Virus genome (UHGV): UHGV-0142951
DNA length: 21,565 bases
Source: a virus
Direction: 5' to 3' (one strand)
The notes beneath the pieces are model-generated. The model saw nothing but the letters and a program-made list of their open reading frames with translations, ran no database searches and was not told where the DNA came from. Of this stretch, positions 3,317 through 21,565 are shown piece after piece. The first letter of the stretch is position 1. The number at the start of each line of letters is the position of its first letter. The translations under genes were made by a program, and so were the position numbers.

Positions 3317-4728
3317 CCTCGATTAATCCTATCTTTGAACCGTTCATTGAGGCGCATCGCTACAAAGTCGCCAAAGGCGGTCGAGGTAGCGGTAAGTCAT
3401 GGGCAATTGCTAGGCTGCTTGTTGAGGCGGCGCGTCGGCAGCCTGTGCGTATTCTCTGCGCTCGTGAACTGCAAAACAGTATCAGCGATTCGGTAATCCG
3501 GTTGCTTGAAGACACCATAGAGCGGGAAGGGTATTCGGCTGAGTTTGAAATTCAGCGTTCAATGATCCGTCATCTCGGAACGAATGCTGAATTCATGTTC
3601 TACGGCATAAAAAACAACCCTACGAAGATTAAATCGCTCGAAGGCATTGATATCTGCTGGGTGGAAGAAGCGGAAGCGGTAACAAAGGAATCGTGGGATA
3701 TCCTGATACCAACCATCCGCAAGCCGTTTTCCGAAATATGGGTGAGCTTTAACCCGAAGAACATACTCGACGATACCTATCAGCGATTCGTTGTAAATCC
3801 TCCCGATGATATTTGTCTGCTGACGGTGAACTACACCGACAATCCGCATTTTCCTGAAGTTCTCCGTCTGGAGATGGAAGAGTGTAAACGCAGAAACCCG
3901 ACACTGTATCGTCACATCTGGCTTGGTGAGCCAGTAAGCGCAAGTGATATGGCAATCATCAAACGTGAATGGCTTGAAGCCGCAACCGATGCGCACAAGA
4001 AACTCGGATGGAAAGCGAAAGGCGCTGTTGTCTCTGCGCATGACCCATCAGATACAGGGCCAGATGCTAAAGGTTATGCATCGCGTCACGGTTCGGTAGT
4101 TAAGCGCATTGCCGAAGGTCTGCTGATGGATATCAACGAGGGTGCTGACTGGGCAACTTCGCTGGCGATTGAAGACGGCGCTGACCACTACCTGTGGGAT
4201 GGTGATGGTGTTGGTGCTGGGCTACGCAGACAGACAACGGAAGCGTTCTCCGGCAAGAAAATCACCGCCACGATGTTCAAGGGCAGCGAATCGCCATTCG
4301 ATGAAGATGCACCATATCAGGCCGGAGCATGGGCCGATGAAGTCGTACAGGGCGACAACGTTCGCACTATTGGTGATGTGTTCCGCAATAAGCGAGCACA
4401 ATTCTATTACGCGCTGGCTGACAGGCTGTATCTGACATATCGGGCGGTTGTTCACGGTGAGTATGCAGACCCCGACGACATGCTGAGTTTCGACAAAGAA
4501 GCGATAGGCGAGAAGATGCTGGAGAAGCTGTTTGCAGAACTGACGCAGATTCAGCGCAAATTCAATAACAACGGGAAGCTTGAGCTAATGACTAAGGTCG
4601 AAATGAAGCAGAAGCTCGGTATTCCATCTCCTAACCTGGCTGATGCGCTGATGATGTGTATGCATTGCCCGGAGTCGGCTGCGCAACCCGACTATTCCAG
4701 TTACTCAATTCCTTGTGGTGTAGGTTGA
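3313..4728 (+). CDS. Terminase large subunit (ATPase/nuclease)
   Basis: ORF track 3313..4728, 471 aa. Walker A GGRGSGKS near the N-terminus; N-terminal sequence MTSINPIFEPFIEAHRYKVAKGGRGSGKSWA matches recalled Sf6 gp2. Directly follows and overlaps terS. Confidence 0.95.
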   Translation: MTSINPIFEPFIEAHRYKVAKGGRGSGKSWAIARLLVEAARRQPVRILCARELQNSISDSVIRLLEDTIEREGYSAEFEIQRSMIRHLGTNAEFMFYGIKNNPTKIKSLEGIDICWVEEAEAVTKESWDILIPTIRKPFSEIWVSFNPKNILDDTYQRFVVNPPDDICLLTVNYTDNPHFPEVLRLEMEECKRRNPTLYRHIWLGEPVSASDMAIIKREWLEAATDAHKKLGWKAKGAVVSAHDPSDTGPDAKGYASRHGSVVKRIAEGLLMDINEGADWATSLAIEDGADHYLWDGDGVGAGLRRQTTEAFSGKKITATMFKGSESPFDEDAPYQAGAWADEVVQGDNVRTIGDVFRNKRAQFYYALADRLYLTYRAVVHGEYADPDDMLSFDKEAIGEKMLEKLFAELTQIQRKFNNNGKLELMTKVEMKQKLGIPSPNLADALMMCMHCPESAAQPDYSSYSIPCGVG

Positions 4729-13154: not shown

Positions 13155-14621
13155 ATGGCTACTTGGCAAGGAACAAATGGCGGATTGTTGGCTGGTATCG
13201 GTGGTGTCAACTCAAACGCTCCGAGCGTAAATGACATCGGCAATACGCTTCAGCTTATCAGGCAGAACAATGATATTGAGCGTTCAGGCGCTAACAATGT
13301 TGGGCTGACTGCTTTGCAAGGCCTTTCAGGTATTGCAGGGGTGTTTCAGCAGGAAAAGCAGGCTCAGCGGCAGAAAGAATTTCAGCAGGCGTACGCTAAT
13401 GCTTATGCGTCTGGTGATCGCGGTGCTTTGCGTCAGTTGGCTACTCAATATCCAGACCAGATTGAATCTGTTCGCAAAGGCATGGGATTCATTGATGAAG
13501 ACCAGCGCAATTCTATCGGCACCTTAGCGGCTGGCGCACGCCTTGCGGCCTCGTCTCCAGAAGCAATGCAATCATGGCTGCAAAACAACGCCAAGGAACT
13601 GACTCGCGTCGGTGTTGACCCTAATAACGTTGCTCAGATGTATCAGCAGAATCCTTCAGGATTTGGTGAGTTTGTTGATCACCTTGGGATGGCTGCTCTT
13701 GGTCCGATTGATTACTTCAATGTTCAGGACAAGATGGCTGGTCGTGAGATTGACCGAGGCAGACTGGCAGAGACAATCCGCAGCAATCAGGCTGGTGAAG
13801 CACTTCAGGCGAGAGGGCAGGATATTAGCCGAGCAAATGCGTTAACGTCAGCATATGCACCAACAGCCGCAATGCAGAATTACAATCAGTACGCGCAAAT
13901 GTTAAAGGTAGATCCAGATGGTGCAGCGGCATTTGCGGCAGCGGCGGGAATTAATCCCAATGCTAAGAAATTACTTAAGGTTGAAACCAATCCTGATGGC
14001 TCGGTAACTAAGTATTACACCGATGGCAGCGAGGAAGCCGGAAAACTAAACCAACCTATATCTGGTGATGGCATTAAACCAATTAGCTTGCCACAAGCGC
14101 AAAGCATCATAGATAAGGCTAATGAGGGTTCCAAGAAGGCGGCGGGATTTGCTTTGCGATTAAAAGATTCAATGGACTCAATGAATCAGCTTAGTAAAAG
14201 CATTGACCCTAAGCGAGTTGCATTAATAAATCGCTCTCTTGGTGATGGAACTATTGCAAATTTAAGCCTATCACCAGCGGAGCAGCAATATATGGTAAAT
14301 GCGAGAGACGCCTTGTATGCAATTTTGCGCCCAGAAACAGGTGCAGCAATTACTCTGCCAGAGATGCAGGAGTATTCCAAAATGTACCTCCCTCAGCCCG
14401 GTGATTCCAAGGCTGCTACTGAAACAAAAATGCGAAAAATGCAGGGCCAATATAACTCATTACGTGGTCAGTCTGGTCGCGTTTATGATGCTTTGGTGGT
14501 TTCAAGTGCTGCAAATAGTCAACAACAGAGCAATAGCCAACAACCGACAAATACCCAACAGCAGCAGAGTCAATCCGGATCATATACCTCAAAATCAGGC
14601 ATTCAATTTACGGTGGAATGA
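13155..14621 (+). CDS. Ejection protein, P22 gp20-like
   Basis: ORF track 13155..14621, 488 aa. AAGGGG upstream; synteny between the gp7-like and gp16-like genes. Confidence 0.7.
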
Positions 14622-16849
14622 TGAAAGTAACTGCAAACGGTAAGACATTTACCTTTCCTGATGGTACGAGCACCGAAGATATTGGCACCGCCATTGATGA
14701 GTATTTTGCTGGTCAGGCTGTTCAGCAACAAACAGTTAATCAGGCCAATAATGCACCAACACGGGAAGAACCATCATTGATGCAACAAGCTGGCGATTGG
14801 CTCACTGGTGGTCAAAGTGCAGAGCAAATTGCAGAACAGGCTGGTCGTGGTCTGGTAAACATACCATTTGACGTATTGCAGGGTGGCGCAAGTCTGATTA
14901 ATGCAATCAGTCAGGGGCTTGGGGGGCCAAAAGTATTGGATGATGTTTATCGTCCAGTAGACAGACCGACAGACCCCTACGCGCAAGCTGGAGAGTCAAT
15001 AGGCGGTTATCTTGTTCCTGGAGCAGGTGTAGCTGGAAACATGGTCATTGGTTCTCTCGCTGACGCGGCGAATCAACGGGGTGATTTTGCCGAAAATGCC
15101 GCTATTAATGCCGGACTTAACATTGCTACGCATGGCCTGATAAATGGCGTTACCCGTGGTGTTCGTGGTGCATCAAATATAATTAGTGGCAATAAAATAT
15201 CTGCACAGAGAGCGACCACTGCGCCAACAGAAACATCACCATTCTCCGGTGATGCCGCTGCAGCAACAAATCCTGCGGTTCATGCCGCAGAGGCAAGAGT
15301 AGCACAAGGTGTACCAATGACGCCTGCGACGAGGAACCCAGAGGAAGTCGTTCGCACAGTAGCAGCACAAAAAAGGCCAAATCTCGCTTCATCGCTTGAT
15401 GAACTAGATATCAATCCTCAGGCTGAAGTTCTGGAGTCTGCTGAAAGGCTTAATGTTGATTCATTACTCCCTTCACACTTTTCCGGGAACGAGCAATACA
15501 AGGCAGTTGAGCAAGCAATCAAGTCCCGTGCGGGTTCTGCTCTACAGGTGCAGGAAAATGAAGCAATCAGGCAGCTAGCACAGGGCGCGGGGGAGATAAT
15601 TGATCGCGTTTCCGGTGCAAAAGATGCTCTTGGTATGAGCGACAAGTTTATTGATACGGTCAATGGAAGAATGTCTGCGCTGATGAAACGAAGCGACCAG
15701 CTTTATCGCAATGTTGAAAAGGCGATGCCTGCAGGTGCAAAAATTGATGCGCCATCAACAAGGTCAATGCTCAAACAGGTGGCAGAAGATCTTGGCGGGA
15801 TGAAAAACCTTGACCCTATTGAAAAGAGAGTCTTTCGGGCAGTTAATCCAGGCAAGAACGGCGCATTAACTTATGCAAATCTCAATAAGCAACGACGACT
15901 TGTTGGTGATGCACTTCATAGGAATTCTGGACCATATAAAGATACTGATCGCGCTGCTTTATCGAGGCTTTACGGTTCGCTCGCCGATGATCAAAAGGCG
16001 GCGCTGTCAGAGACAAATGCATTACGTGATTTTGAAGTTGCTCAGAGGCTTGTTCAGATGCGAAAAAGCATGGAAGAGCAAATGATTAATCTAACTGGCA
16101 GAACGCTGAACGGTGATGTTTCTCGCAAAGCAACTACAGCACTACAGGCAATGTCGAAAGGCGATGCCAAAGGATTTCGTGAATTGATGCAAAACACGCC
16201 GTCCAGGAAGCTAAGAACCGAGCTACTGGGAACAGGTCTTCGGGATATGCTTTCGAACGGAAAACGTGGCGCTGATTTTAATCCTGCAGGGTTTGCTGAC
16301 TGGTATCAAAACATGTTAGCAAACGGGCAGATGCGCAATCTTGCCCGACATTTACCAAAAGAGACTATGTCAGGTCTGAACGATGTATATAAGGTCGCAA
16401 AGGCTATCAAAGACGCAAAATCTTACGAGATAACCACAGGAAGACTAAACGAGTTCGTCAAACGGTTTAATCGCGTCACTGCGGCAAATGAATTTGTTGC
16501 TAACCATGCCCAACGCATTGGCACTGCGGTTGGTTCAACTGTGTCAGGACCGTTCAGTGCAGTAGGTGCTGTTGCTGGGTCAGAAATTGGGGCAAAAGTC
16601 GCCAGCAAAATCAGGGCGATGGGCGGCGCTGCATCAATGGAATCTGCAGAAAAGCTAATTAGCTCACCAGAATTCCAGAAAGCAGCAAGGCTGGCAGTAA
16701 AACAAGCACCAGAAAGCATCGTTGATACAACTGTAAGACGCTCTTCTGCTTGGCGCTCGTTTTACAACTCACTTCCAGAATCAGATAAGAAAACCATATC
16801 AAGGCTAGGCATCATGTACTGGATGAACAGTGATGATAACCAGAAGTAA
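14618..16849 (+). CDS. Ejection protein, P22 gp16-like
   Basis: ORF track 14618..16849, 743 aa. Overlapping start (ATGATGA) with the gp20-like stop; last gene of the virion module. Confidence 0.7.
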
Positions 16850-16866
16850 CGGAAAGCCACGGATGG

Positions 16867-17037
16867 TTAGTTGCTGTCTTTTTTATATAAATCTCTGAGC
16901 GTATCAAAGACAATTTTCTTTACCATATCGGATTGTTGGTCTGCAATACGCGATGCTATTGGTAGCGATGAATTCAATCGCTTGTCGAGAGCTGGTATTG
17001 TCGCCTCGTTAAGCGGTATGAATGAATATGAATAGCT
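16867..17037 (-). pseudogene. 3' remnant of an mnt-type repressor gene (C-terminal about 56 codons, no start codon or RBS)
   Basis: Minus-strand frame continuing directly after the lipoprotein stop codon translates to ...LPIASRIADQQSDMVKKIVFDTLRDLYKKDSN*. This closely matches the recalled C-terminus of P22 Mnt (...RLADEQSELVKKMVFDTLKDLYKKTT). The N-terminal RHH part is absent. Confidence 0.55.
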
Positions 17038-17523
17038 TTATCTAATGTTGCTGCTACTGTTGCATGTGACGGTGTTTCCAAATCCTGAATTGCAGTTTGT
17101 ATATGTGTCAACGCGTGTTGGGTAAGGTTGAGTTATAACAGGCTGGCGCGCTTTTTGCTCGATCGCTTGCATTGTGTTTACAGCCTGATAATTCAATAAA
17201 GCCTGCTGGAATGCTTGGCTTTGCGCTATTTGTTGGGCTTGTTCTTGGCTTTGTAATTGAACATAAAGATTCTGAAGTTCAAGTCTTGCCTGTGTGTCAC
17301 TTATCTTGCCTTCATCGACACCTTGCCCGAGCATCTTCGCAGCAAGGACATACAGCTTAGGTGTTGGTGCTGATGCCATGCGAGAGTCGTTCTTCAAGCT
17401 GGCATCAAGGCAATTAGCCATATCGCTAAGCTTTGGATAGCGTTGCTCGCAACTTGCCTGATAGTCGCTTACTTTTGCGCACCCAGCCAGCAGAAGCGGG
17501 ATAATTAACAGTGATTTTTTCAT
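17038..17523 (-). CDS. Predicted lipoprotein of unknown function, 161 aa (accessory gene)
   Basis: Internal ATG (17521-17523) of track ORF 17038..17574 with AAGGAGAG upstream. Signal peptide MKKSLLIIPLLLAGC with lipobox LLAGC; Gln-rich helical middle; Cys-containing C-terminus. Lower GC than the structural genes (by eye). Confidence 0.7.
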   Translation of the reverse strand: MKKSLLIIPLLLAGCAKVSDYQASCEQRYPKLSDMANCLDASLKNDSRMASAPTPKLYVLAAKMLGQGVDEGKISDTQARLELQNLYVQLQSQEQAQQIAQSQAFQQALLNYQAVNTMQAIEQKARQPVITQPYPTRVDTYTNCNSGFGNTVTCNSSSNIR

Positions 17524-17557
17524 ATAATTAACTCTCCTTAGTTTTGCGCAGGATACC

Positions 17558-17923
17558 ATGAAAAAAGTTAACATTGGAAATGTACCAAAGATGCTAGTAC
17601 CGCTCTTTGAGAGCGGTACAATTGTGTTTTGTAGAGACTTTCCAGAATGGCAACGCCTGCATCAAAAACTTGGCGTTGACGTGCATGACTCGGACGCCAA
17701 CGGAGCGTCTCATACAATGAGTAGCGAGAATGGTGTTTTGCATGTGATAGGCGTGTTCAATGGCAAACTATCTACTATTGCCCATGAGTGCGCTCACATG
17801 GCATTCGATATCTGCTCAAGGGTAGGTGTTGATGTTGAACCAGGAAGAGCCAACGAGACTTACTGCTACTTAATGAGCAGGCTTGTTGAGTTCTGCGAGC
17901 GACATATCAAAAAGCCGGAGTGA
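17558..17923 (+). CDS. Small HExxH zinc-metallopeptidase-like protein, 121 aa (possibly ImmA/IrrE-like)
   Basis: ORF track 17558..17923. Motif STIAHECAHMAF (His76-Glu77-x-x-His80) with candidate third ligand in VEPGRANETY (Glu94/Glu100); the context resembles the recalled ImmA/IrrE signature (..LAHELGH.. / ..E.EAN..). Divergent from the lipoprotein gene, start codons 34 bp apart. Confidence 0.55.
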   Translation: MKKVNIGNVPKMLVPLFESGTIVFCRDFPEWQRLHQKLGVDVHDSDANGASHTMSSENGVLHVIGVFNGKLSTIAHECAHMAFDICSRVGVDVEPGRANETYCYLMSRLVEFCERHIKKPE

Positions 17924-17931
17924 CCCGGCTT
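17907..17931 (-). terminator. Candidate rho-independent terminator for the minus-strand small gene
   Basis: 7-bp stem AAGCCGG (17912-17918) / CCGGCTT (17925-17931), loop AGTGAC. On the minus strand it is followed by a U-run (plus-strand A-run 17909-13), 5 nt past the stop of gene 17937..18116. Confidence 0.45.
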
Positions 17932-17936
17932 GAGTA

Positions 17937-18116
17937 TTACTTTTTGCTGTCTGGAGTTCGCTTATCCAATACCCAGCCATGACCTGGCTTTGTTGTTGGT
18001 GGAAGCCTTTCGTTGTCCTTGACGGTTGCAAAATTGTCTTTCTTACCGCCGCGTGGGCCAACTTCTTGGTATATTCCGCCGTTTTTTCCTGTGTTTTCAC
18101 CTGGTTTTTTCGCCAT
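17937..18116 (-). CDS. Small basic Gly/Pro-rich protein, 59 aa (YjzC-like pattern, tentative)
   Basis: Internal ATG (18114-18116) of track ORF 17937..18131 with GAGG 6 nt upstream. Protein MAKKPGENTGKNGGIYQEVGPRGGKKDNFATVKDNERLPPTTKPGHGWVLDKRTPDSKK, no hydrophobic segment. Has its own candidate promoter and terminator. Confidence 0.5.
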   Translation of the reverse strand: MAKKPGENTGKNGGIYQEVGPRGGKKDNFATVKDNERLPPTTKPGHGWVLDKRTPDSKK

Positions 18117-18152
18117 GATATACCTCAACATATACCCGTTATTGGGCGATTA

Positions 18153-18181
18153 AATATTGATCTCATTTTATAAGTAGTCAA
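18153..18181 (-). promoter_or_regulatory. Candidate sigma70 promoter for the minus-strand small basic protein gene
   Basis: Minus strand reads TTGACT (plus 18176-18181), 17-nt spacer, AATATT (plus 18153-18158), about 35 nt upstream of the RBS. Confidence 0.3.
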
Positions 18182-18206
18182 TATGGCCCAGGTAAATGCA
18201 AAAATT

Positions 18207-18231
18207 AACCCACCGTCAGGTGGGTTTTTTT
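18207..18231 (+). terminator. Rho-independent terminator (strong on the + strand, A/T-flanked on both sides)
   Basis: Perfect 8-bp stem AACCCACC (18207-18214) / GGTGGGTT (18219-18226), loop GTCA, then a T7 run (18225-18231). Confidence 0.7.
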
Positions 18232-18263
18232 ATCTTCTCTACTTTAAAGATTAAGGAAATACC

Positions 18264-18449
18264 ATGACCATAGAAGAACGTCTGAACAACATTGAGTTGA
18301 ATCAAACCCTGCTTGACCAGCGACTTTCAGATCTTGAGCTTAAAGATCTAGATGTGCAAATATCAGAAGCAGAAGCCAAGCTCTCCAGCTTAAACCACCG
18401 CAGGAAGCAAATCCGCGACAGAATTACTCGTGGACGCGGAGGCTGTTAA
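18264..18449 (+). CDS. Small coiled-coil protein with basic C-terminus, 61 aa, hypothetical
   Basis: ORF track 18264..18449. AAGGA RBS 7 nt upstream. Heptad-like Leu/Ile pattern (IEERLNNIELNQTLLDQRLSDLELKDLDV) then RRKQIRDRITRGRGGC. Confidence 0.45.
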   Translation: MTIEERLNNIELNQTLLDQRLSDLELKDLDVQISEAEAKLSSLNHRRKQIRDRITRGRGGC

Positions 18450-18526
18450 GGTGTGATGGTAATCCTTGCTCACTAAATTTAAGGATGCGAATCTTTCCGG
18501 CCATAGGAGTAATCATGATTTACCCA

Positions 18527-19063
18527 TCAAACAACCCACCAGTTTGCCTGATTGGATACCAGCCTTGCAGTTTTTATGGAATTAATTATGCCATGCTCAA
18601 GAGCCTTGTTAGCATCCAAAATGGTCGAGTCTGCTATCAGGGATGCCCACCTAATATGGGTTCCGATGTCGATATTGAACGTCTCAACGAAGCGATCAAG
18701 ATCGTTATCGAGGCATTTCCCGTACTCTCTCAATCTGGCATGGTCGGCGGCTGGGGAGGCAAAGCACCATAATAGAGGATGTAACAGGAATCTTGATAAT
18801 GGGTTTGCGAAACGTTCTGAGCCAGCCAGGAAAACGATATTAGCTATGGATTCAACATTGCTTATGTTGTGAGTTCTAACGGTAACAGGGAGTGACTTAA
18901 GAAAGTTATACGCAGTAAAGCCAGCGGCAGTTTCCCCTCCCTGACTTGATATATGGATATTTAATTCAGTTGCGCCTTGAGATAATGCGGTGAGACAGTG
19001 GTTCTGAAGTTGCCCAACAGTGGCAGTGTTAACGGGGCATAAGAAATGAATTGTGTGCAGCAT
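18527..19063 (-). CDS. ClpP-fold (S14-like) serine peptidase, 178 aa, translationally coupled to the upstream Mnt-like gene
   Basis: ORF track 18527..19063. Hand alignment to recalled E. coli ClpP: ISSQGGETAAG vs INSPGGVITAG; Ser72 (VESIA) aligns with the ClpP catalytic Ser (GQAASMG); RFANPLSRFLLHP vs RFCLPNSRVMIHQP places His95 at the catalytic His; C-terminal ALEHGIINSI vs AVEYGLVDSI with Asp145/Asp150 nearby. Start ATG overlaps the upstream stop by 1 nt (TAATG). AAGGA RBS lies inside the upstream gene. Confidence 0.65.
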   Translation of the reverse strand: MLHTIHFLCPVNTATVGQLQNHCLTALSQGATELNIHISSQGGETAAGFTAYNFLKSLPVTVRTHNISNVESIANIVFLAGSERFANPLSRFLLHPLLWCFASPAADHARLREYGKCLDNDLDRFVETFNIDIGTHIRWASLIADSTILDANKALEHGIINSIKTARLVSNQANWWVV

Positions 19064-19314
19064 TATTTTTCATCCTTAGCATACATGGTCTTTAGCGTCT
19101 CAACATCGTGTTCAAGATCTATCAATCGTGATGCTATAGTTGCAAGGTCTAGTGCTTGAATGTGTTTATTTTTTTCTGTCCACGCTTCAAGTGCCGCGAC
19201 CATCTCAGCATTTAATGAACGAGAATTAGCCTCAGCCAGTTCAATAAGACGTTCCTTTATCTCTACAGGAAGCCTCAGATTCACTTGAGGGTTTTTGTAC
19301 TTACGATCAGACAT
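19063..19314 (-). CDS. mnt: Mnt-like ribbon-helix-helix repressor, 83 aa
   Basis: Track ORF 19063..19320 begins at a GTG; preferred ATG 19312-19314 with AGGA 7 nt upstream. NPQVNLRLPVEIKERLIELAEANSRSLNAEMV resembles recalled P22 Mnt (DPHFNFRMPMEVREKLKFRAEANGRSMNSELL). C-terminal helix ...VETLKTMYAKDEK. Confidence 0.7.
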   Translation of the reverse strand: MSDRKYKNPQVNLRLPVEIKERLIELAEANSRSLNAEMVAALEAWTEKNKHIQALDLATIASRLIDLEHDVETLKTMYAKDEK

Positions 19315-19331
19315 CGGCACATCCTGAATAA

Positions 19332-19571
19332 TTATTTACCATACATGGTCTTTAGCGTCTCAAGTAGCGCCTCTTTGAATTTATCAGCTTCTTGGTTAGC
19401 GAATCCTTCAAGTGAGCGAGAGCCATCAAGATTATCAACATGTTTTTGAAGGATAAGCACGATCTCTGAGTTCATTGATCTGCCGTTTTTATCCGCTTCT
19501 TGCTGAATGCGTTTCTTTAAATAGTCTGGAATCCTAATCCCCAATGGACTGATATCTCTTGCACCTTTCAT
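19332..19571 (-). CDS. Second RHH repressor paralog, 79 aa (Arc-like N-terminus MKG..., Mnt-like C-terminal extension)
   Basis: Internal ATG (19569-19571) of track ORF 19332..19613 with GGAGGAGAA directly upstream. ISPLGIRIPDYLKKRIQQEADKNGRSMNSEIV is an RHH fold; C-terminus ...LLETLKTMYGK. Occupies the mnt position beside the divergent promoter region. Confidence 0.7.
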   Translation of the reverse strand: MKGARDISPLGIRIPDYLKKRIQQEADKNGRSMNSEIVLILQKHVDNLDGSRSLEGFANQEADKFKEALLETLKTMYGK

Positions 19572-19596
19572 TTCTCCTCCTGCACGCTGTGCATAG

Positions 19597-19666
19597 CTAC
19601 ACAGTGTAGGCAAAAAAATTTTGACTTTAAATAAACACGGTGTAGTATTTAGTTATCACGGTGTAG
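19597..19666. promoter_or_regulatory. Candidate operator cluster in the divergent mnt/arc control region
   Basis: Near-perfect palindrome CTACACAGTGTAG (19597-19609) plus two direct copies of CACGGTGTAG (19636-19645 and 19657-19666) spaced 21 bp apart. Four TGTAG/CTACA half-sites within about 70 bp between divergent RHH genes. Confidence 0.45.
19621..19648 (+). promoter_or_regulatory. Candidate Pant-like sigma70 promoter driving the arc-like and ant genes
   Basis: TTGACT (19621-19626), 16-nt spacer, TAGTAT (19643-19648). Overlapped by the CACGGTGTAG repeats. About 30 nt upstream of the arc-like RBS AAGGGGA. Confidence 0.4.
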
Positions 19667-19679
19667 CAAGCAAGGGGAA

Positions 19680-19820
19680 ATGAAAGTTAGAGACATCGCT
19701 CCATTAGGGATTCGTATCCCGCCAGAGATTAAAGAAAAATTGAAGGAAAAGGCTAAGGAGGAGGGCAGGTCTTTAAATTCAGAAATAGTGCAGCGTCTTA
19801 TTCGCAGCCTAAAAAGTTGA
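19680..19820 (+). CDS. arc: Arc-like ribbon-helix-helix repressor, 46 aa (below the ORF-track size cutoff)
   Basis: ATG 19680 with AAGGGGA upstream; stop TGA 19818-19820. My translation: MKVRDIAPLGIRIPPEIKEKLKEKAKEEGRSLNSEIVQRLIRSLKS, an RHH fold (beta strand then ..GRSLNSEI.. helix) as in recalled P22 Arc. Position immediately upstream of ant as in P22 immI. Confidence 0.7.
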   Translation: MKVRDIAPLGIRIPPEIKEKLKEKAKEEGRSLNSEIVQRLIRSLKS

Positions 19821-19884
19821 AGCCCCAACTGCGGGAACAGTCAGGGCTTCGGTATCGTAAAACCACGCATAGGAATTAACGACA
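19811..19884 (-). ncRNA. Candidate sar-like antisense RNA covering the ant ribosome-binding site
   Basis: Minus-strand promoter-like TTGATT (plus 19913-19918), 17 nt, TACACT (plus 19890-19895) inside the first ant codons. Minus-strand hairpin (7-bp stem 19819-19825 / 19844-19850 with inner 4-bp stem) followed by AAC then a U5 run (plus A-run 19811-19815). Predicted RNA of about 70 nt, complementary to the ant SD and start, analogous to P22 sar. Confidence 0.3.
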
Positions 19885-20807
19885 TGACGAGTGTAGCAAT
19901 TGCAGAACATACAATCAACGTTCCATTCCACGGAACAAATCTCTTTTTGGTCAGCATTAACAATGAACCTTACGTTCCTATGAAACCCGTTGTAGAAGGC
20001 ATGGGTATGGTTTGGGCTGCTCAATTTGTTAAATTAAAACAGAGATTTGTCAAAGGTATTTCGGAAATCGAAATACCTTCTGCTGGCGGTAAACAGTTAA
20101 TGATATGCCTTGCCTTTCGTAAGTTTGCGGCTTGGCTTTCAAGCATTCAGCCAAACAAAGTCCGCCCTGAAATCCGCGACAAGGTAATCCAGTATCAGGA
20201 AGAGTGTGACGATGTGCTCTACGAATACTGGACTAAAGGCCATGTAGTTAACCCGCGCAAAGCTAAAAAGGCATTGCCGGGGAAAATCACCACTGAACAG
20301 CAGGAAGCCATTAAACAACTCGTCATGAGTCGCGGTCAGTCTCTTCCAAAAGAAAAACAGGCTAAGGCGATGATCACCATGTGGTCGTCACTGAAATCCC
20401 ATTTTGGATGTTCGTACAAAGAGATCAGTGAGGAGCAGTTTACCGAAGCACTATCACTTGCAGCTCGAGTTCCACTTGAAGGTGAGTTCATTGGCAAACA
20501 AGAGAAGAAAGCAAACGAGCTTTCTGCAAAAGAAGCAAACAGCCTTGTATGGTTATGGGATTATGCCAACCGCTCACAGGCATTATTCCGCGAACTGTAT
20601 CCGGCGCTAAAACAAATTCAATCGAACTATTCCGGCAGATGTCATGACTGCGGTTATGAGTTCTCCCGTATTATCGATATGGCGAGAGATGTTTTAATCA
20701 ACCATACACGAGATGTTGATATTAATGAGCCAGACGGACCAACGAATCTTTCCGCATGGATGAGACTTAAGAATAAAGAATTACCTCCTTCAGTACATAA
20801 CTACTGA
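19884..20807 (+). CDS. ant: Antirepressor (P22 Ant-like)
   Basis: ORF track 19884..20807, 307 aa. AGGA 8 nt upstream; directly downstream of the arc-like gene and followed by a terminator, as in P22 immI. N-terminal region (VPFHGTNLFLVSINNEPYVPMKPVVEGMGMVWAAQ) is consistent with the P22 antirepressor N-terminal domain as recalled. Confidence 0.65.
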   Translation: MTSVAIAEHTINVPFHGTNLFLVSINNEPYVPMKPVVEGMGMVWAAQFVKLKQRFVKGISEIEIPSAGGKQLMICLAFRKFAAWLSSIQPNKVRPEIRDKVIQYQEECDDVLYEYWTKGHVVNPRKAKKALPGKITTEQQEAIKQLVMSRGQSLPKEKQAKAMITMWSSLKSHFGCSYKEISEEQFTEALSLAARVPLEGEFIGKQEKKANELSAKEANSLVWLWDYANRSQALFRELYPALKQIQSNYSGRCHDCGYEFSRIIDMARDVLINHTRDVDINEPDGPTNLSAWMRLKNKELPPSVHNY

Positions 20808-20825
20808 CAGATAACCAACGCAACG

Positions 20826-20849
20826 ACCCAGCTTCGGCTGGGTTTTTTT
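20826..20849 (+). terminator. Rho-independent terminator after ant
   Basis: Stem ACCCAGC (20826-20832) / GCTGGGT (20837-20843) with TTCG tetraloop, then a T7 run (20843-20849). Confidence 0.8.
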
Positions 20850-20907
20850 ATGCCCAAAATTCACCGTAGCCATGCTGCGGCGATTCCTTGTATCTGGAGC
20901 AAATTAA

Positions 20908-21565
20908 ATGACAGATATCACCGCAAATGTTGTGGTAAGCATGCCTTCGCAACTCTTCACTATGGCGCGTTCTTTTAAAGCTGTAGCCAATGGCAAAATT
21001 TATATCGGTAAAATTGACACTGACCCGGTAAATCCTGAAAACCAGATTCAGGCTTATGTGGAGAACGAAGACGGCTCTCACGTTCCTGTTTCGCAACCAA
21101 TCATCATTAACGCTGCTGGATATCCGGTATATAACGGACAGATTGCCAAGTTCGTTACCGTGCAAGGCCATTCTATGGCTGTTTATGATGCGTATGGTGC
21201 GCAGCAGTTCTATTTTCCTAATGTGCTGAAGTATGACCCTGATCAACTACGGCAGCAATTAGAAGACCCAGATGGAGCGAATAAATACCCAAAACTTCAG
21301 ATAGCAAGATGGAGAGACAGTTATGATGTAAGAGGTTGGGGGGCTATTGGTGATGGTGTTCATGATGATACATCAGCTCTATCAGAATTACTTTCTGTTG
21401 CAACAGGTGGTGAAAAGATAGATGGGCGAGGGCTTACTTTTAAAGTATCAACTCTTCCAGATGTCAGTCGATTTAAAAATGCTCGTTTTTTATTTGAGAG
21501 AATACCGGGTCAGCCTCTTTTTTATGCTTCTGAAGATTTTATCCAGGGAGAGTTATTTAAAATTA
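20908..21565 (+). CDS. Tailspike protein, N-terminal part (conserved P22-type head-binding domain, then the start of a divergent receptor-binding domain); truncated by the window end
   Basis: ATG 20908 with GGAG 8 nt upstream. My translation [59 protein letters not shown]...[31 protein letters not shown] matches the recalled P22 gp9 head-binding domain. Downstream sequence ([24 protein letters not shown]) resembles the start of a pectate-lyase-type beta helix. Not in the ORF track because it has no stop within the window. Confidence 0.9.

Follow-up and report, generated by a model that had tools for sequence, protein, structure and literature searches.

The window, by which we mean the whole 21,565-nucleotide stretch of viral DNA analyzed here (UHGV virus genome UHGV-0142951), carries a gene 16 and a lipoprotein gene that converge on a short interval at 16867-17037. 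The following features lie at this locus (window coordinates, strand, and basis of the assignment in parentheses).

14618-16849, plus strand: gene 16, intact A-type allele, ejection or DNA transfer protein (ORF of 743 amino acids)
16850-16866, no strand: 17-nt spacer that belongs to the A-type arrangement, where gene 16 and mnt converge (the same in Sf101 and CUPF06)
16867-16951, minus strand: 3' stub of mnt, with its stop at 16867-16869 and 27 codons at 16870-16950 (1QEY, PF11423)
16943-16951, no strand: crossover microhomology GC(A/C)ATACGC, with a perfect ATACGC at 16946-16951 (alignment of parents A and B)
16943-17035, plus strand: 3' stub of a B-type gene 16, 30 codons and a TAG at 17033-17035 (30/30 amino acids of PEC301 gp16)
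17036-17037, no strand: 2-nt spacer that belongs to the B-type arrangement and separates the gene-16 stop from that of the lipoprotein gene (PEC301)
17038-17523, minus strand: lipoprotein gene, 161 amino acids, with lipobox LLAGC and Shine-Dalgarno sequence GGAG (ORF; phrog_6067)

The functional gene 16 of the window is the A-type open reading frame at 14618-16849. Its 3' end is ~96% identical to that of Shigella phage Sf101 and 98% identical to that of E. coli CUPF06, and the C terminus of the A-type gp16 is unrelated to the tail of the B-type gp16. The TAA that ends this gp16-like frame (16847-16849) is separated by the 17 nt CGGAAAGCCACGGATGG from the stop codon of the mnt fragment, the distance given in the original prediction.

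Read on the minus strand from 17040 to 16867, in the frame of the lipoprotein stop codon (TAA at 17040-17038), the interval translates into 56 sense codons, SYSYSFIPLNEATIPALDKRLNSSLPIASRIADQQSDMVKKIVFDTLRDLYKKDSN, bounded by a stop on each side, exactly as had been predicted. The original prediction also held that the end of this translation resembles the C terminus of P22 Mnt, and the likeness proved to be beyond chance. When the 56-residue fragment was compared with all PDB chains by phmmer, only two entries matched, and both were Mnt: 1QEY, the C-terminal tetramerization domain, over fragment residues 28 to 54 (E = 3.2e-8; 19/27 residues identical, counted by hand), and 1MNT, with an alignment reaching residue 49 (E = 3.7e-4). 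The Pfam family PF11423 (Repressor_Mnt) matched with E = 9.4e-13 and 48.1 bits (cutoff, 20.9), aligning fragment residues 28 to 52 to profile positions 4 to 28 of 28; nearly the whole tetramerization helix is kept. The 27 codons of the stub itself translate as RIADQQSDMVKKIVFDTLRDLYKKDSN, agreeing at 25/27 positions with the C terminus of an 86-amino-acid Arc-family protein of CUPF06, and the stub DNA is ~96 to 98% identical to the 3' end of the intact Mnt-like gene in Sf101 and CUPF06.

A Pfam scan of the 56-residue translation found no match to the Arc-like RHH domain PF03869, bearing out the predicted loss of the N-terminal domain; the same domain is present in the intact relatives, Sf101 gp14 (E = 5.7e-14) and the CUPF06 protein (E = 7.3e-15). 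The only in-frame starts within the 56 codons are TTG at 16977 and ATG at 16926, and no Shine-Dalgarno-like sequence lies within 20 nt upstream of either, so the prediction that there is no start codon with a ribosome-binding site also holds. Measured against the P22 Mnt family, the fragment has the PF11423 helix and neither the RHH domain nor a start codon with a ribosome-binding site. The mnt stub is therefore a pseudogene fragment rather than a repressor, lying beside a gene-16 pseudogene fragment, and from its sequence it is very probably untranslated, as first proposed.

How much of the 56-codon frame comes from mnt was decided by its homologs. A blastn search with 16700-17200 as the query against ~50,000 phage genomes divided the region into three blocks with sharp edges. 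Positions 16700-16951 match Shigella phage Sf101 (96.4% identity), 16943-17055 match Bas106, Dewey, Huey, and Louie within the "DNA transfer protein," or gene 16 (94.7%), and 17038-17200 match Gally, VSe13, and vB_EcoP-720R6 within a hypothetical protein that corresponds to the lipoprotein (94 to 95%). The locus is a three-way mosaic of an Sf101-like left part, a Bas106-type gene-16 3' end, and a Gally/VSe13/720R6-type lipoprotein gene.

The middle block is not mnt. On the plus strand from 16943 it encodes AIRDAIGSDEFNRLSRAGIVASLSGMNEYE followed by a stop, identical at 30/30 residues to the C terminus of the 829-amino-acid gp16 of E. coli PEC301, and the first ~29 codons of the minus-strand frame are its antisense. 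At the nucleotide level, this gene-16B stub is ~95% identical to its counterpart in CurroJimenez_Bas106, Dewey, Huey, and Louie and 80 to 82% identical to CUS-3, HK620, and epsilon34; in Bas106, the counterpart segment comprises the last ~87 nt of the plus-strand gene 16 and ~20 nt downstream. Of a full-length B-type gp16 (~830 amino acids), the window holds the last 30 codons and the stop only. The remnant predicted across 16867-17037 thus stands for 16867-16951, the only part of the 56-codon frame derived from mnt; at 16943-17035 the sequence is instead the 3' end of gene 16(B), read on the plus strand.

The original prediction, in which all of 16867-17037 is an mnt remnant and a lipoprotein-led cargo was inserted into mnt with its left junction at 17037/17038, could point to a frame that stays open for 56 codons and runs on continuously from the lipoprotein stop, and to Gally-type lipoprotein homology that begins exactly at 17038. 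Four observations run against it: 16943-17055 are colinear, at ~95 to 100% identity, with an intact B-type gene 16 and the sequence downstream of it; PEC301 uses these bases as the final 30 codons of gp16, with the stop of the lipoprotein gene 2 nt away; to the right of 16951, the mnt genes of parent A no longer resemble the window at all; and the matches to the Mnt profile and 1QEY are confined to fragment residues 28 to 54. We consider this account almost certainly wrong. An IASR motif in the fragment had also been taken to recur in the intact 83-amino-acid Mnt-like protein of the window, and this turned out to be a coincidence. The "IAS" codons lie antisense to GATGCTATTGG, a sequence that does not vary among intact copies of gene 16(B), so the likeness to the ATIASRL of the window's 83/85-amino-acid RHH protein is accidental.

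Both unrecombined arrangements exist in sequenced genomes. In Sf101, gene 16 is followed by 17 nt and then by a convergent Mnt-like gene of 97 amino acids (gp14, YP_009153088), whose product matches PF11423 (E = 3.3e-14) and ends in AERMAEQQSDMVKKIVFDTLKELYKKDSS. CUPF06, our parent A, has gene 16, the identical 17-nt spacer, and an intact 86-amino-acid "Arc family DNA-binding protein" (WP_094313062) that carries both PF03869 and PF11423 and ends in AERIAEQQSEMVKKIVFDTLRDLYKKDSN. In PEC301, our parent B, gene 16 ends at position 4093 of the locus examined (L006) and the opposite-strand lipoprotein coding sequence starts at 4096, so that 2 nt lie between them; beyond the lipoprotein come a small ORF and then mnt, arc, ant, and the tailspike gene. 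When a 131-nt query spanning the junction was compared with 5,426 complete E. coli genomes, at least 14 matched from exactly 16943 rightward, within a "DNA transfer protein," and 8 matched leftward, ending at 16950-16951, within an "Arc family DNA-binding protein." At least 14 of the complete E. coli genomes, together with 19 IMG/VR contigs, have an intact gene 16 with the B-type 3' end.

Alignment of the parents brings the breakpoint into focus. At the junction, parent A reads TTGTTCTGC(C/T)ATACG(C/T)TCTGC, with the core TCTGC(C/T)ATACG(C/T)TCTGC at the microhomology; parent B reads GTAAAAGCAATACGCGATGC, with the core AAAGCAATACGCGATGC; and the window reads TTGGTCTGCAATACGCGATGC. The parents share the hexamer ATACGC perfectly and 8/9 positions over GC.ATACGC, and their flanks are unrelated. 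Because the A-type C at 16945 is kept in several carriers (ETEC1730, PK8217, AHM8C212RI, and IMG/VR loci L023 and L034), the exchange itself falls within ATACGC at 16946-16951. The true crossover is this microhomology of 6 to 9 nt at 16943-16951, ~90 nt to the left of 17037/17038, and alignment with mnt genes, which had been suggested as the way to define the breakpoint, places it here instead. These are the marks of a microhomology scar: two unrecombined parents exist, homology to each stops at the junction, and a short sequence is shared at the crossover without extended homology.

The position first taken for the edge of an insertion has a simpler explanation. Since in parent B only 2 nt separate the stops of gene 16 and the lipoprotein gene, 17037/17038 is a native gene junction and not a breakpoint. 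It reads intact in PEC301 and in ~14/19 parent-B IMG/VR contigs; among the ~5 remaining contigs, two are Bas106-like and three have another sequence after the stop or end early. The lipoprotein gene is contiguous with B-type gene 16 in PEC301, FORC_041, EC23HZZ201, and LR-31, and 16943-18230 are 98.7% identical to the parent-B genome EC23HZZ201. By these comparisons, the lipoprotein gene and the gene-16B stub arrived together as a single block. The lipoprotein belongs to phrog_6067 (E = 2.9e-109), a PHROG family of unknown function, and a Pfam scan returned no family match for it. P22 carries sieA where the window has its lipoprotein gene, convergent with gene 16, and by this analogy the lipoprotein is a plausible candidate for superinfection exclusion.

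Two small sequence features were seen at the gene-16 boundary. B-type gene 16 varies at its extreme end (17016-17035) by a tandem indel of 6 nt (ATGAAT), so that its products end in GMNE* or GMNEYE* (the asterisk denotes the stop), and each form is found both in intact genes and in stubs. Separately, the decamer CCACGGATGG occurs in the A-type 17-nt spacer (16857-16866) and directly 3' of the gene-16 tail variant of the M172-1 class, where it lies to the right of the gene-16 stub (loci L005, L009, and L036). It may be a short boundary sequence common to the two places.

The original prediction had attached meaning to the frame that the mnt fragment shares with the lipoprotein stop. This did not survive comparison among carriers, one of which has an internal stop and others of which have no lipoprotein gene. 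By a rough estimate, (1/3) x (61/64)^29, the chance that the segment is both in frame and open is ~0.08, which makes the shared open frame unremarkable. As a gene product, a read-through extension of the lipoprotein was rejected: the stop is TAA, WCHEC050613 has an in-frame stop (IPLN*ATIP), and M172-1 and AHM8C212RI carry the scar without the lipoprotein gene. Also rejected was a plus-strand ORF of 54 amino acids (16871-17035), in which antisense of mnt runs on into the tail of gp16B; its sole Pfam match, RodZ_C (E = 0.0094, 16.3 bits), falls below the family cutoff.

Of the 5,426 complete E. coli genomes, 10 have the window-type junction, as do 5 of the 24 IMG/VR contigs with a 23-mer from the stub. 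One of the IMG/VR loci, L013, is identical to the window across the ~200 nt compared. To the right of the junction, the cargo varies among carriers.

ETEC1730: a PEC301-like immI block
PK8217: lipoprotein, 104-amino-acid ORF, mnt, arc, and ant
WCHEC050613: lipoprotein, XhlA-like, and Rap1a/Tai-like genes
M172-1 and AHM8C212RI: a different gene-16 tail variant, with a 140-amino-acid gene replacing the lipoprotein
CFSAN064035: lipoprotein, then a further 900-nt gene-16-like partial sequence
The window: lipoprotein, 121-amino-acid ORF, YjzC-like 64-amino-acid ORF, 61-amino-acid ORF, ClpP-like 178-amino-acid ORF, and then two RHH genes, arc, sar, and ant

The gene-16-like partial coding sequence of CFSAN064035 (L004 4877-5776) lies downstream of the lipoprotein gene, contains a lytic transglycosylase domain, and is missing its N terminus; it is one more scar within the same moron in a genome that has the window-type junction. 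No identical copy of the whole window was found among phages, the best match being CUS-3 at 60% coverage, and no complete E. coli genome matched the cargo region 16850-19900 at ≥80% coverage (best, 61%).

RefSeq annotation of the mnt stub in these carriers is inconsistent. In two genomes, PGAP labels the equivalent 90 nt (window 16867-16956) [quoted passage not shown] (C6669_RS29810 in CFSAN064035 and DBA32_RS06855 in WCHEC050613), and in M172-1 and ETEC1730 it calls a 19-amino-acid "hypothetical protein" within the stub (WP_235766825.1, MVKKIVFDTLRDLYKKDSN; L005 4268-4327 and L011 3483-3542). The 19-amino-acid call would fit a stub that is expressed, as a peptide of 36 (TTG at 16977) or 19 (ATG at 16926) amino acids acting as a dominant-negative anti-repressor, in which the Mnt tetramerization helix would poison the A-type Mnt tetramers of competing phages. 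Coverage of PF11423 positions 4 to 28 of 28 fits such a peptide, as does the mnt stub frame, which is open in all carriers examined. Yet most stub variants match alleles of the intact gene, so gene conversion explains the open frame as well as selection does. Neither start is preceded by a Shine-Dalgarno-like sequence, and PGAP itself calls the same DNA a pseudogene in other genomes. In addition, the stub has two changes (E to D and S to C) unseen in the two intact alleles examined, and the window's own Mnt-like proteins differ at their C termini, leaving such a peptide no resident target. We regard its expression as very improbable.

Searches for nucleic acid signals were likewise negative. 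A consensus scan of 16850-17040 found no terminator-like or promoter-like site; Rfam, at E ≤ 1 across 16000-21565, returned only sar and a weak overlapping ctRNA match near 19.8 kb, with none in the scar; and the RNA fold of the minus strand from 17045 to 16845 was not significant (z = -1.64), with 12/200 shuffles folding at least as well. From these missing signals we infer that the interval has no function. The same results weigh against its being kept as an RNA or DNA element, be it a 3' untranslated region or terminator serving the lipoprotein transcript, a barrier where late and moron transcription converge, or a recombination hot spot that captures morons. That possibility draws on a second junction of independent origin, which in E. 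coli 203740 lies no more than 6 nt from the site used in the window, and on an imperfect hairpin ~12 nt to the right of the junction. Against it, there are two junction types only, with no third type among the 24 IMG/VR contigs found with the stub 23-mer, and parent B has no such spacer, so a dedicated element is not needed there. A retained element of this kind seems to us very improbable.

In E. coli 203740 (L008 3240-3600), a truncated Bro-N/Ant gene is fused to the same gene-16(B) tail at the microhomology CGCGATGC(T); its counterpart in the window is 16949-16957, 3 nt of which fall within the window-type crossover; beyond the junction come the same lipoprotein gene and then a second immI copy. 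Two events within 6 nt of each other in a ~2.5-kb gene are suggestive of a preferred site, but with n = 2 and no additional junction type in IMG/VR they are no more than a curiosity. The hairpin itself, AGCGAT-GAATTCA-ATCGCT at 16963-16981, includes an EcoRI site, lies within the gene-16B stub, and is ~12 nt to the right of both junctions. An unlikely but broader proposal is that the gene-16B tail at 16943-16957 is a preferred point of illegitimate capture, possibly promoted by the hairpin, that repeatedly grafts a lipoprotein-led cassette; a dominant-negative helix peptide is the less likely of such functional roles. If capture at this point is real, its left-hand partners were unrelated, being mnt in the lineage of the window and, in E. 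coli 203740, a gene for a Bro-N antirepressor.

We return to the crossover between parents A and B as the origin of the window's junction. In our reconstruction, 16867-17037 is, with high probability, a nonfunctional scar of a microhomology crossover between two P22-like (Lederbergvirus) genomes, and the recombination scar with an mnt C-terminal remnant foreseen in the original prediction is borne out, with two parents and their junction now reconstructed. The parents differed in the region from gene 16 to the "ant moron" (immI). Parent A carried gene 16(A), the 17-nt spacer, and a convergent intact mnt-like gene, and parent B carried gene 16(B), the 2-nt spacer, a convergent lipoprotein gene, more moron genes, and its own mnt/arc/sar/ant. 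One illegitimate exchange at ATACGC, a site that falls in codon ~59 of mnt(A) and, in gene 16(B), 30 codons ahead of the stop, would yield a product in which gene 16(A) is complete and the B-type moron is kept whole. Between them lie two dead stubs arranged tail to tail, the minus-strand one comprising 84 nt of mnt and the plus-strand one 93 nt of gene 16(B). Later the junction spread, and its right-hand cargo was reshuffled by ordinary homologous recombination. The alignments are read most simply as a single old crossover whose flanks were afterward exchanged by homologous recombination, and a single origin is what we infer; carriers vary at 16945 (A or C) and at nearby polymorphisms, and repeated formation at the same microhomology is a conceivable alternative.

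The scar lies at the edge of a region that has the composition of immI, or the "ant moron," namely mnt, arc, sar, and ant between gene 16 and the tailspike gene. Farther to the right, the window carries the following features.

Within 18527-19320, minus strand: ClpP-like protease gene, 178 amino acids (PF00574, E = 2e-11)
19063-19320, minus strand: Arc-domain RHH gene (Pfam scan)
19332-19613, minus strand: Mnt-like RHH gene (Arc domain)
19621-19648, plus strand: Pant-like promoter
19680-19820, plus strand: Arc-like ORF, 46 amino acids (assigned by eye from the sequence)
19815-19882, minus strand: sar antisense RNA (RF00262, 84.6 bits)
19884-20807, plus strand: Ant (P22_AR_N and P22_AR_C domains)

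Judged by these features, a complete immI core occupies 19332-20807. The Arc-domain RHH gene at 19063-19320 overlaps the start of the ClpP-like gene by one base, and this pair is a moron apart from the canonical mnt next to Pant.

Taken alone, the scar has little importance, as gene stubs in the ant moron are a documented by-product of mosaic evolution. It does require a correction of annotation, in that two stubs are present rather than one, and the spurious ORFs of 19 and 54 amino acids should not be called. It also offers a clean example of a reconstructed crossover by which a gene-16 allele, or a whole moron block, was swapped, with both parents extant. According to one report (PMC10883804), the C-terminal regions of gene 16 influence sensitivity to SieA-type superinfection exclusion, and on that ground exchanges placed exactly at the gene-16 boundary could be selectively relevant.

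Compared with known systems, the last 27 residues of the stub share 19/27 positions with P22 Mnt, and the intact mnt-like genes of Sf101 and CUPF06 occupy the same position in the same orientation, convergent with gene 16 over an identical 17-nt spacer. Unlike P22 Mnt and the Sf101 and CUPF06 genes, the stub has no N-terminal Arc-like RHH domain, start codon, or promoter. The pseudogene in RefSeq is the same 90-nt feature at the same junction, whereas the adjoining gene-16B stub is left unannotated by PGAP. The scar is thus of an ordinary and already annotated kind, and what is new here is its corrected anatomy and breakpoint. In P22-like phages, the "ant moron" that separates gene 16 from the tailspike gene is hypervariable, with degraded arc and ant in HK620 and Scho1 (Villafane et al. 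2008, PMC2629481). Those remnants lie at the same locus and represent the same phenomenon, nonfunctional leftovers of horizontal exchange. In contrast to HK620 and Scho1, both parents and the exact microhomology crossover can be reconstructed here, and the scar consists of two stubs, one of them a piece of the structural gene 16.
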